This document shows positions 48,424 to 50,559 of a DNA stretch of 64,000 bases, piece by piece. Made by a program: the position numbers and the translations under genes. Position 1 is the stretch's first letter. Every line of letters begins with the position of its first letter. The notes under the pieces were generated by a model that did no database searches, was not told the origin of the DNA, and saw only the letters and a program-made list of their open reading frames with translations. The stretch lies in the IMG/VR virus record IMGVR_UViG_3300045988_151198, one strand, 5' to 3'. This DNA is from a virus.

Positions 48424-50559
48424 ATGGCTAATGTAAAACCCATAACGACTAAACAATTCAATCAAAACAAAAAGCATATCACCGACATCCATTGGTACGC
48501 CGACAATGTTCTTAACGGAAATATTCAGGTCTGTAAATACATTAGAGCATTGTGCAAAAACTTTAAAGATGATCTTGCCAATAAAGACCTCGATTTTTAT
48601 TTTTCGGAAGAATCGTCTATCCGAGTAATTTGTTTTATTGAAAATATGGTGCATGTCAAGGGCGTTCTTACTGGAAAAAGATTAAAGCTTGAGCCTTGGC
48701 AGAAATTCTTCGTTGGAAACATCTTTGGGTGGCTGGATAAGAAAAACAATCTCCGCAGGTACAGGGAGGCCGCCCTTATCGTCCCCCGAAAAGCTGGCAA
48801 GGCTTTAGCTGTAAGCACTCCAATCCCTACTCCCGAGGGTTGGGTCACGATGAATGATTTAAAGCCCGGAGATGCCGTTTATGGGCCAAATTCGGATATA
48901 CGGAGAGTAGTAGCCGTAACGGAAGTGATGTACGGAAGGCCGTGCTATGAAATTTCTTTCAGTGATGGTTCCGCTATTACTGCCGACGCGGAGCATCTTT
49001 GGAAAATCGACGGTAAGAATATCGTAACCTCCGAAAGTCTGCATCAAATCCTGTCCCATAATGGCAGAAAGCCCAAAGTGTGGGTAGCTCCGAATATAAA
49101 AAGGCATGATGGCGAGACGGTGCCTGTGGTAAGATTTATTACGGATTGTAAACCTGTGGAAAGCGTTCCGGTGAAGTGTATACAGGTTGACAATGAAGAT
49201 GGAATGTATCTTTGCGGGAAAACGTATATTCCGACTCACAATAGCAGCCTTGCAGCGGCTATTGGTCACTATATGCTTGTTGGTGAAAAAGAAAAAGGTT
49301 CAGAAGTATACTGTGGCGCGACCACAGAAGTTCAAGCATTTGTCCTGTTCAACATCGCTCGGGATATGATTGTTGCCAATAAAGCATTTGAAGAAGCATT
49401 TGGTCTGACTTATACTAAAGAATCGATTCATGCGCAATCAACGCTTTCTACGTTCAAACCTATTATCGGAAGCCCGAAGGACGGTAGTAATCCTCAATGC
49501 GCTATTGTTGACGAGTATCACGAGCATCCTTCCGACGCGCTGTATGACTCGTTGAAGCTCGGTATGGGCGCAAGACAGCATCCTCTCTTGCTTGTTACTA
49601 CCACCGCAGGGACGAACATTAAAGGCCCGTGCTATCGTTATGTGGAGCAAGGCAGGAAGGTCGTATTGGGAAAAGCAAAGAACGACCGACTATTTTACAT
49701 GGAATTCACCATTGACGATACGGATAAATGGGAAGATTTTTCATGTTGGATTAAGGCCAGCCCGAACTTTGGAGTTTCCGTATCCGAAGAGTTCCTGCGC
49801 GAGCAATACGAAATAGCCAAATCATCACAGTACAAGCGTTCATCCATTCTTACCAAAATGCTGAATGTTTGGAACAATGAATCTGTGGGGTGGATTGACT
49901 TTCCTAAATGGCTTAATTGTACTGACAGAAATCTAAAGATGGAAGATTTTGAAGGCGAGAAATGCTGGATTGGCATTGACCTAGCCTCTAAAGTCGACTT
50001 AACAGCAATGGTTGCCGTCTTTAAGCGTGACGGTAAGTTCTATGTTTTCGGAAAATACTATCTTCCTTCCGATACTGTAGATAGGCCGGAGAATGACCAT
50101 TATCGTGGCTGGAGGGATGAAGGCTGGCTGACCGTAACGCAAGGGGCTCGAACAGATTATCACGCGCTAGAGGAGGACTTGCAAAATTGGGCTGATAAAT
50201 ATGCGATTCAGGAAGTAGCATATGACCCTAGAGAAGCCGAATATCTTATGCAGAATATCCGGGAATGGGCGGCATTTGAATGTATTGAATTCACACAGTC
50301 ATCCGCTACTTTCTCCGAGCCGATGAAAGAGTTTGAAGCTGCGTATCTTAATGGGGAACTTTTCCACCAGAATGACCCTATCCTCAATTTCGCAGCAGGG
50401 AATGTAGTCCTGAAATCCACAACGAACAAACTTGTTTACATGACCAAAACGGCGAATGAAAATAAAATCGACCCGATGGTCGCTATGATTATGGCAATCG
50501 CTAGAGCAATGGAAGATAAAGAAGAAGAGGCGTCAGATCCGTTTATTATGTTCCTTTAA
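48424..50559 (+). CDS. terminase large subunit (Terminase_1-like) interrupted in the Walker A loop by a mini-intein
   Basis: Start set to the ATG at 48424 after the AGGAGAGGAG RBS. Removing residues 148-294 of the ORF restores [22 protein letters not shown], a canonical PRKxGKS/T P-loop plus the ALY-like segment. Downstream nuclease-domain acidic residues are present. Confidence 0.85.
   Translation: [711 protein letters not shown]
48802..49242 (+). mobile_element. mini-intein (147 aa, no homing endonuclease domain) in the terminase P-loop; class 3-like (Ala1, W-C-T motif)
   Basis: Block A [20 protein letters not shown]; block B ...ITADAEHLW; block F/G [24 protein letters not shown] followed by the +1 Ser. 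Excising it restores the Walker A motif. Confidence 0.65.

Follow-up and report, generated by a model that had tools for sequence, protein, structure and literature searches.

A probable class 3 mini-intein in the Walker A motif of a phage large terminase

How can the large terminase (TerL) of a tailed phage package DNA when its ATP-binding loop is interrupted by 147 amino acids? The question is raised by the IMG/VR virus record IMGVR_UViG_3300045988_151198, of which we analysed a stretch of 64 kb, called here the window, out of a genome of approximately 88 kb. The insert is encoded on the plus strand at nt 48802–49242 and lies between the Lys and the Ser of the Walker A motif of TerL, PRKAGK/S, where the slash marks the insertion point. 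A preceding reading of the letters alone (the sequence-only reading) had described the insert as a class 3-like mini-intein. The best explanation is that the segment is a functional class 3 mini-intein within the TerL of an uncultured tailed phage, a conclusion that we regard as very probable.

Homology, fold and insertion site

The sequence-only reading took the host gene to be a large terminase, and profile searches bear this out. The product of terL (48424–50559 on the plus strand, including the stop codon) matches Pfam TerL_nuclease (PF20441, E = 4.5e-46) and TerL_ATPase (PF03354, E = 8.2e-19), the latter in two stretches, as well as PHROG 9 ‘terminase large subunit’ (E = 3.9e-154). Its Pfam domain layout is of the HK97/Terminase_1 type, with an N-terminal P-loop ATPase followed by a C-terminal RNase H-like nuclease. 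Retranslation of the open reading frame (ORF) at 48361–50559 (+) agreed with the protein quoted earlier, the segment beginning with ALAV and ending with PTHN/S between an upstream ...IVPRKAGK and a downstream Ser at position +1, and the nucleotide coordinates of the insert in the Walker A motif proved correct to the base. The residue numbers that went with them, 148–294, had been counted from the ATG at 48361; from the ATG at 48424, which is the likely start codon, the intein comprises residues 127–273. Counted in this way the precursor has 711 amino acids and a computed mass of 81.0 kDa. It consists of an N-extein of 126 residues (48424–48801), which ends in the first part of Walker A, the intein of 16.2 kDa, and a C-extein of 438 residues (49243–50556) that holds the remaining ATPase domain and the nuclease domain; the ligated exteins have a mass of 64.8 kDa.

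When the insert was excised in silico the match to TerL_ATPase rose from 68.4 bits in two pieces to 80.5 bits in one stretch, covering profile positions 1–172 of 178. The spliced TerL also matches the HK97 TerL structure 6Z6D (E = 2.5e-34) contiguously across RKNGK-TGL. The prediction that excision fuses the P-loop was therefore sound, as both a contiguous P-loop and the ATPase domain are regained in silico.

A phmmer search of the full 147 amino acids against the sequences of the PDB returned the DnaB-1 mini-inteins of mycobacteria, namely 6RIX (E = 1.3e-32), 6BS8 and 6OWN (2.9e-32) and 6RIY (4.4e-32). As a sequence comparison this match is far beyond chance, and BLASTP against the Mch DnaB-1 intein gave 45% identity from end to end. 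We then modelled the insert with six flanking residues on each side using AlphaFold2 (AF2) and 35 aligned sequences, which produced a mostly beta-strand, HINT-like model with a mean predicted local distance difference test score (pLDDT) of 85.2 and a predicted template modelling score (pTM) of 0.80. The first matches of this model in a Foldseek search of the PDB were 6RIY, 6BS8 and 6RIX (E approximately 1e-13, target-normalised TM score approximately 0.9), and subsequent matches included gp41-1, bacterial intein-like domains, Prp8, the Ssp DnaB, Npu DnaE and RecA inteins and Hedgehog autoprocessing domains. The top 9 are all intein structures, and 46 matches at E ≤ 1e-3 belong to the HINT superfamily, most of them inteins. 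On the combined phmmer, AF2 and Foldseek results the insert has the complete set of splicing blocks A, B, F and G within a HINT fold.

The mini-inteins that head these lists are known as DnaB-1 or DnaBi1 (also DnaB-b), from M. smegmatis (Msm; 6BS8/6OWN) and Mch (6RIX/6RIY). They are approximately 45% identical to the window intein over the whole length, contain 139–145 amino acids compared with 147, and like it have no homing endonuclease. Both share Ala1, Cys48, His65, Trp67, the block F Cys, the Tyr that in DnaBi1 binds zinc (Y128; Y136 in the window), the terminal THN and Ser+1, and both interrupt a Walker A P-loop whose Ser thereby becomes residue +1. They differ in that the window host protein is a phage large terminase rather than a bacterial replicative helicase, that the stretches linking block B to block F have unrelated sequences, and that the window phage, with a GC content of 41.6%, is not an actinobacterial system.

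To examine the insertion site we built an alignment of the window TerL and its 120 best homologs and inspected what each sequence has between Lys126 and Ser274. Lys126 is invariant in all 121 sequences and the PRKxGK motif is conserved. In 86 of the 120 homologs PRKxGK is followed directly by Ser or Thr with no residue in between, while 31 carry an insert of 343–429 amino acids at the identical point, many with LAGLIDADG Pfam domains (PF14528/PF05204). Mini versions occur in four of the 121 sequences: the window protein, its 99% identical twin P0001, P0003 (145 amino acids) and P0008 (174 amino acids). The endonuclease-free form thus accounts for 4 of the 35 inteins at this site and is less common in TerL than the endonuclease-bearing form. 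The remnants of the linker differ in the alignment among the window, P0003 and P0008 versions, which suggests, from sequence, that the endonuclease was lost independently in the three.

It could be argued that the segment is native to this lineage of Terminase_1 proteins, and that its resemblance to intein motifs arose by chance. Aligning intein-free TerL homologs was the proposed way of refuting the intein in favour of such an insertion, and the alignment failed to do so, the site being empty in most homologs. We found no support for a native insertion beyond the weakness of the matches to curated profiles. Against it stand the full-length match to solved inteins at E approximately 1e-32, the HINT-fold model, the homologs with zero residues at the site, and the presence of the same element after the GK of unrelated P-loop proteins (T4-type TerL, and fragments that either have an FtsK/SpoIIIE domain or derive from unidentified proteins). 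The phmmer match, the empty site and the model together refute this reading, which we consider barely credible.

The short fragments came from a word-indexed protein search with the intein alone, which returned 11 of them, apparently cut-off gene calls that end inside the same intein after a P-loop GK. These proteins (P0121–P0131, 106–243 amino acids, from outside the window) break off within the N-terminal half of an intein of this class 3 family. Several contain an FtsK/SpoIIIE domain, P0129 reads ...GVGK/ALDVET in an unidentified protein, and P0127 is TerL-like with ...PRKHGK/ALDIDT. Most look like frameshifted or truncated gene calls; two are on long contigs (52 kb and 174 kb) and may be naturally split or disrupted genes.

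The insert gave no Pfam match to a LAGLIDADG or HNH domain. The earlier statement that it lacks a homing endonuclease is borne out, at 147 amino acids against 343–429 in its LAGLIDADG-bearing relatives. Arrangements in which the endonuclease is encoded antisense have been described in a 2025 preprint (10.1101/2025.01.02.630785). An antisense ORF of 136 amino acids does overlap the intein at 48859–49269, and we rejected it as an endonuclease: it has no Pfam match, and between the window and L001, a related locus of 95% nucleotide identity, it shows 17 amino acid differences while the sense strand shows only 4.

Class 3 signature and predicted splicing route

Class 3 inteins are defined by the lack of a nucleophile at position 1 together with a Trp-Cys-Thr triplet (WCT; Trp at B:12, Cys at F:4 and Thr at G:5), and usually have Ser or Thr at +1 (PMC2807308). 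We set the WCT positions by alignment to DnaBi1 and Mch DnaB-1 (H65/W67/C118/T-H-N), and every element is present in the window intein. Ala1 at block A:1 (codon GCT, 48802–48804) leaves no N-terminal nucleophile. Block B contains His65-Leu66-Trp67 within EHLW (48994–49002), with the B:10 His at 48994–48996 and the B:12 WCT Trp at 49000–49002. In block F the VKCIQV motif provides Cys126 (F:4, 49177–49179), which is the predicted initiating nucleophile, and block G ends in Thr145-His146-Asn147 (49234–49242), the WCT Thr, penultimate His and cyclising Asn. Ser+1 (49243–49245) would act as nucleophile of the C-extein and also supplies the Ser of Walker A GK-S, and intein-free homologs have Ser or Thr right after GK. 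All of the residues named in the sequence-only reading were thus found in the translation, and its assignment of a class 3 WCT signature is upheld by the triplet, by Ala1 and Ser+1, and by the closest PDB relatives being the class 3 Msm and Mch DnaB-1 mini-inteins. All 35 inteins at the TerL site have the same His, Trp, Cys, Thr, His and Asn, with Ser or Thr following at +1; 34 of them begin with Ala and the remaining one with Gly.

The mechanism of class 3 inteins was defined on the DnaB intein of mycobacteriophage Bethlehem (MP-Be DnaB), the prototype of the class (PMC2807308). Like the window intein it has no N-terminal nucleophile, the WCT triplet, a block F with K-C-I...D...aromatic, and Thr or Ser at +1, but it differs in having Pro1, in its 341 amino acids with an endonuclease, and in its host, a phage DnaB-like helicase. 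Substitution of K319, C320, I321, D324 or F330 with Ala abolishes or reduces its splicing (PMC2807308). The window intein retains the corresponding block F residues (49174–49209), namely K125, C126, I127, D130 and the aromatic Y136.

Could the segment be a real splicing intein that uses another route, for example one in which Ser+1 itself directly attacks the N-terminal junction in the manner of class 2 (KlbA-like) inteins and Cys126 is only structural or activating? Ala1 rules out class 1 and is common to classes 2 and 3 (PMC2807308), and the mechanism of the window protein is predicted from sequence. However, class 2 inteins are without WCT and the described examples use Cys at +1, while the window triplet is complete and invariant in the 35 site-mates with Ser or Thr at +1. 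In addition, the closest relative DnaBi1 strictly needs the equivalent Cys118 (PMC6195587, PMC7360933), and in the MP-Be DnaB intein no reaction survives either C320A or C320S (PMC2807308). A class 2 route therefore appears very unlikely.

If the window intein behaves as these homologs do, on whose experiments (MP-Be DnaB and DnaBi1) the following steps are based, an approximately 81-kDa precursor would be translated with a split ATP-binding loop and would be inactive for packaging. It should neither bind nor hydrolyse ATP, because Walker A is cut between the invariant Lys and the Mg-coordinating Ser. The intein would fold as a HINT domain, and the thiol of Cys126 at block F:4 would attack the Lys(-1)-Ala1 peptide bond to form a block F branched thioester. 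The N-extein would then be transferred to the hydroxyl of Ser+1, Asn147 would cyclise to free the 16.2-kDa intein, and an O-to-N acyl shift would restore a normal peptide bond, to yield a TerL of 64.8 kDa whose P-loop is intact. That packaging would depend on splicing is likewise taken from the homologs.

Cys48 (48943–48945) is the counterpart, by alignment, of a residue that in DnaBi1 is essential for splicing and under oxidative stress is the disulfide partner of the catalytic Cys (PMC6195587). The DnaBi1 literature calls it ‘non-conserved’. Yet 34 of the 35 class 3 inteins examined in TerL P-loops retain it, as do those of phages ELT3, B23, Redno2 and SOVA965, with Met in RaK2, and on these alignments Cys48 appears to be a residue conserved at the level of the clade. 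Inhibitory zinc is coordinated in DnaBi1 by C118, V119 and Y128 (PMC7360933), whose window counterparts are Cys126, Ile127 (for the backbone ligand V119) and Tyr136. The phage also encodes an anaerobic ribonucleotide reductase, NrdD (Pfam E = 1.6e-180; 13935–16130, +) with its small activating subunit (PHROG 626; 17499–18002, +), just upstream of the portal gene, and for this reason probably infects an anaerobe. From the Cys48 conservation and the zinc-ligand counterparts one might propose that the intein is a conditional switch, through which oxygen, reactive oxygen species or zinc would reversibly block TerL maturation and hence virion production. We think this unlikely, and the conservation of Cys48 is explained equally well by a requirement for splicing as such. 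Were it true, the ‘redox trap’ would go back to the ancestor of the whole phage-borne clade and would not be a mycobacterial adaptation.

Selection, loss of homing and relatives

Does selection maintain the insert? We estimated the ratio of nonsynonymous to synonymous substitution rates (dN/dS) for the window against L001 and two IMG/VR relatives. The intein has a dN/dS of 0.04–0.08 (dS 0.11–0.34) and the exteins 0.006–0.017 (dS 0.17–0.46). The synonymous divergence of the intein is close to the extein rate, if somewhat lower. The intein is under strong purifying selection that is approximately fivefold weaker than that on TerL. The amino acid changes within the intein are all conservative and none is at a catalytic position.

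A reading that competes with a functional intein is that of an intein-derived domain that no longer splices, being either a tolerated or domesticated insert in a working TerL, or part of a dead terminase that is backed up by a gene outside the window. Mini-inteins without an endonuclease represent a late stage of the homing cycle that decay can follow, splicing is deduced by analogy, and the window holds only part of the genome. Several results speak against it. Walker A is interrupted right after its invariant Lys and before the Ser that coordinates Mg, and in P-loop NTPases such a split should abolish ATP binding. The loss of ATP binding by an insert has also been argued for P-loop inteins (PMC6195587). 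Every residue required for splicing is intact and invariant, the dN/dS values place both intein and exteins under selection and so do not fit a pseudogene, and within the 64-kb window there is no second TerL that could back up a dead one; nor is there a second copy of the terL intein in the window. We therefore judge a nonsplicing domain to be improbable to a high degree.

The case for a functional class 3 mini-intein is nevertheless weakened by a number of points. Purifying selection on the insert would be equally expected for a domesticated, nonsplicing domain, and a second intact terminase gene could lie in the part of the genome that is outside the window. We infer both splicing and its dependence on Cys126 from homologs. 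The linker of the AF2 model, at approximately intein residues 94–114, is of low confidence (pLDDT 58–74). Finally, Pfam gave only Hint_2 (E = 0.041) and DUF7025 (E = 0.12), and NCBIfam only an intein-containing rSAM model (E = 0.0023), all below the curated cut-offs. These hidden Markov model libraries therefore do not decide the matter. Because curated libraries barely detect the insert, the intein assignment depends on pairwise, structural and family-alignment evidence. Since Pfam and NCBIfam miss the intein at their thresholds, class 3 mini-inteins of the TerL clade are probably under-annotated in viromes.

The intein is present in all close relatives seen, comprising the 15 listed members of a 172-member cluster at 90% and six IMG/VR contigs. 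No intein-free allele of the same phage lineage was found in IMG/VR: the intein is present at each of the six close loci there, and beyond these no relative exceeds 49% identity. Among TerL proteins generally the next relatives are at most 61% identical (P0002, which is intein-free). Having lost its endonuclease the window intein can no longer home and must be inherited vertically. On the sequences compared, the pattern fits a mini-intein that is fixed, vertically inherited and needed, through splicing, for a functional terminase. The element would descend from homing endonuclease-bearing inteins at the same TerL site, with loss of the endonuclease followed by fixation and vertical inheritance.

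Such full-length class 3 inteins at GK/(S,T) of TerL occur in the 31 homologs described above and in Escherichia phage ELT3, Klebsiella phage RaK2 and Synechococcus phage B23. They share with the window copy the insertion point (xGK/A...THN/S or T), blocks A, B, F and G and the WCT triplet, and the splicing domains of the closest site-mates are 38–56% identical to it. Unlike the window copy of 147 amino acids they are 330–429 amino acids long, most with the homing endonuclease that it has lost. Searching 50,697 phage genomes with the window intein by tblastn matched 490 records. The top-ranked records listed were nearly all TerL genes, matched as two pieces over approximately 1 kb, which indicates endonuclease-containing relatives. 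Four relatives that we read (the terminases of T4-type ELT3, jumbo phage RaK2, cyanophage B23 and a Stenotrophomonas phage) follow the pattern xGK/A(L/I)xxxT...HxW...C(I/L)...THN/T.

That terminase P-loops can harbour class 3 inteins has been known since 2009. WCT inteins were already reported in DnaB, RecG, SNF2 and phage large terminases, mostly in ATPase P-loops (Tori et al. 2010, PMC2807308). In mycobacteriophage TerL1 five intein sites (a–e) have been described, among them the invariant Lys/Thr of the P-loop at site a, and class 3 TerL inteins cluster with the endonuclease-less mycobacterial DnaB-b intein (Kelley et al. 2016, PMC5050341). The TerL1 inteins resemble the window intein in interrupting the ATPase domain of a Terminase_1-type TerL, and TerL1-c and -e, which are class 3, cluster with DnaB-b inteins as it does. 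However, these class 3 relatives are named at sites c and e (a helix and Walker B) and not at the P-loop, and their hosts are actinobacteriophages. A 2025 preprint on actinobacteriophage inteins counted 287 class 3 members among 784, nine mini-inteins in total and no class 3 intein of less than 225 amino acids (10.1101/2025.01.02.630785). In view of the preprint count and the 490 phage records, the claim in the sequence-only reading that class 3 inteins are rare was overstated for phage terminases.

The window intein is thus a known kind of element in a previously unannotated example, and it leaves current understanding unchanged. It adds weight to the connection, already published, of phage TerL inteins with those in the P-loop of mycobacterial DnaB, and documents in a TerL P-loop the end stage of the homing cycle, in which the endonuclease is lost and the element is fixed and under strong purifying selection. 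Compact class 3 inteins are few (the solved ones are DnaBi1 and Mch DnaB-1), and a natural variant of 147 amino acids with Ser+1, from a phage of 42% GC, is a candidate scaffold for protein engineering.

Several database copies are 100% identical to the window TerL, and relatives of the protein are found on metagenomic contigs of up to approximately 89 kb. The deposited names are only ‘Large Terminase’ (in one case ‘MAG TPA: Large Terminase [Caudoviricetes sp.]’) or ‘phage terminase large subunit-like protein’. At the DNA level, terL gave one trivial match of 98 bp among the 50,697 phage records, and the phage therefore has no cultured close relative there. A scan of 185,579 GTDB genomes found no prophage copies.

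Gene start and genomic neighbourhood

Most database copies of TerL begin at the ATG at 48424. It is preceded at a distance of 5 nt by a strong predicted ribosome-binding site, AAGGAGAGGAG (48408–48418, +). The alternative ATG at 48361 was rejected because it is overlapped by a putative sigma70-like promoter, TTGACA-17-TATACT (48345–48373, +), which agrees with the consensus at 11 of 12 positions and is assigned from this consensus match. Upstream of the promoter a terminator-like hairpin (48313–48336, +), with a 10-bp stem containing five GC pairs followed by the T-run TTCTTTTCTT, would end the preceding transcription unit.

The gene content of the window is that of a tailed phage and includes an SNF2 helicase, a DUF2800 nuclease, a family A DNA polymerase, NrdD and its activase, portal, major capsid, tape measure and tail proteins. 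The usual place of terL is immediately upstream of the portal gene. Here terL lies approximately 30 kb from the portal (18142–19470) and capsid genes, after the tail genes, behind a terminator and a promoter-like site of its own. We recognised no small terminase adjoining terL, and the ORFs upstream of it (47114–47518 and 47539–48063) are without an informative family match.

An HNH endonuclease gene lies approximately 1.2 kb downstream of terL on the opposite strand, at approximately 51742–52248 (−) in the window and 13455–13826 in L001, the Pfam HNH match being to the L001 homolog. In HK97-like phages an HNH protein often assists cutting by the terminase; alternatively, this gene could encode a free-standing homing endonuclease. 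L001 also carries an IS605 OrfB/TnpB protein (Cas12f-like, 391 amino acids; L001 14012–15187, −) approximately 2 kb downstream of terL. It is absent from the window, the BLAST blocks jumping from 13960 to 15360 in L001 while the window moves only from 52248 to 52286, and the difference looks like a recent insertion or loss in the phage lineage. Self-BLAST of the window further revealed a 53-bp imperfect palindrome in the early region of the minus strand (56339–56391) and a direct repeat of approximately 48 bp, present at 63384–63543 in three imperfect copies that are 85–92% identical.

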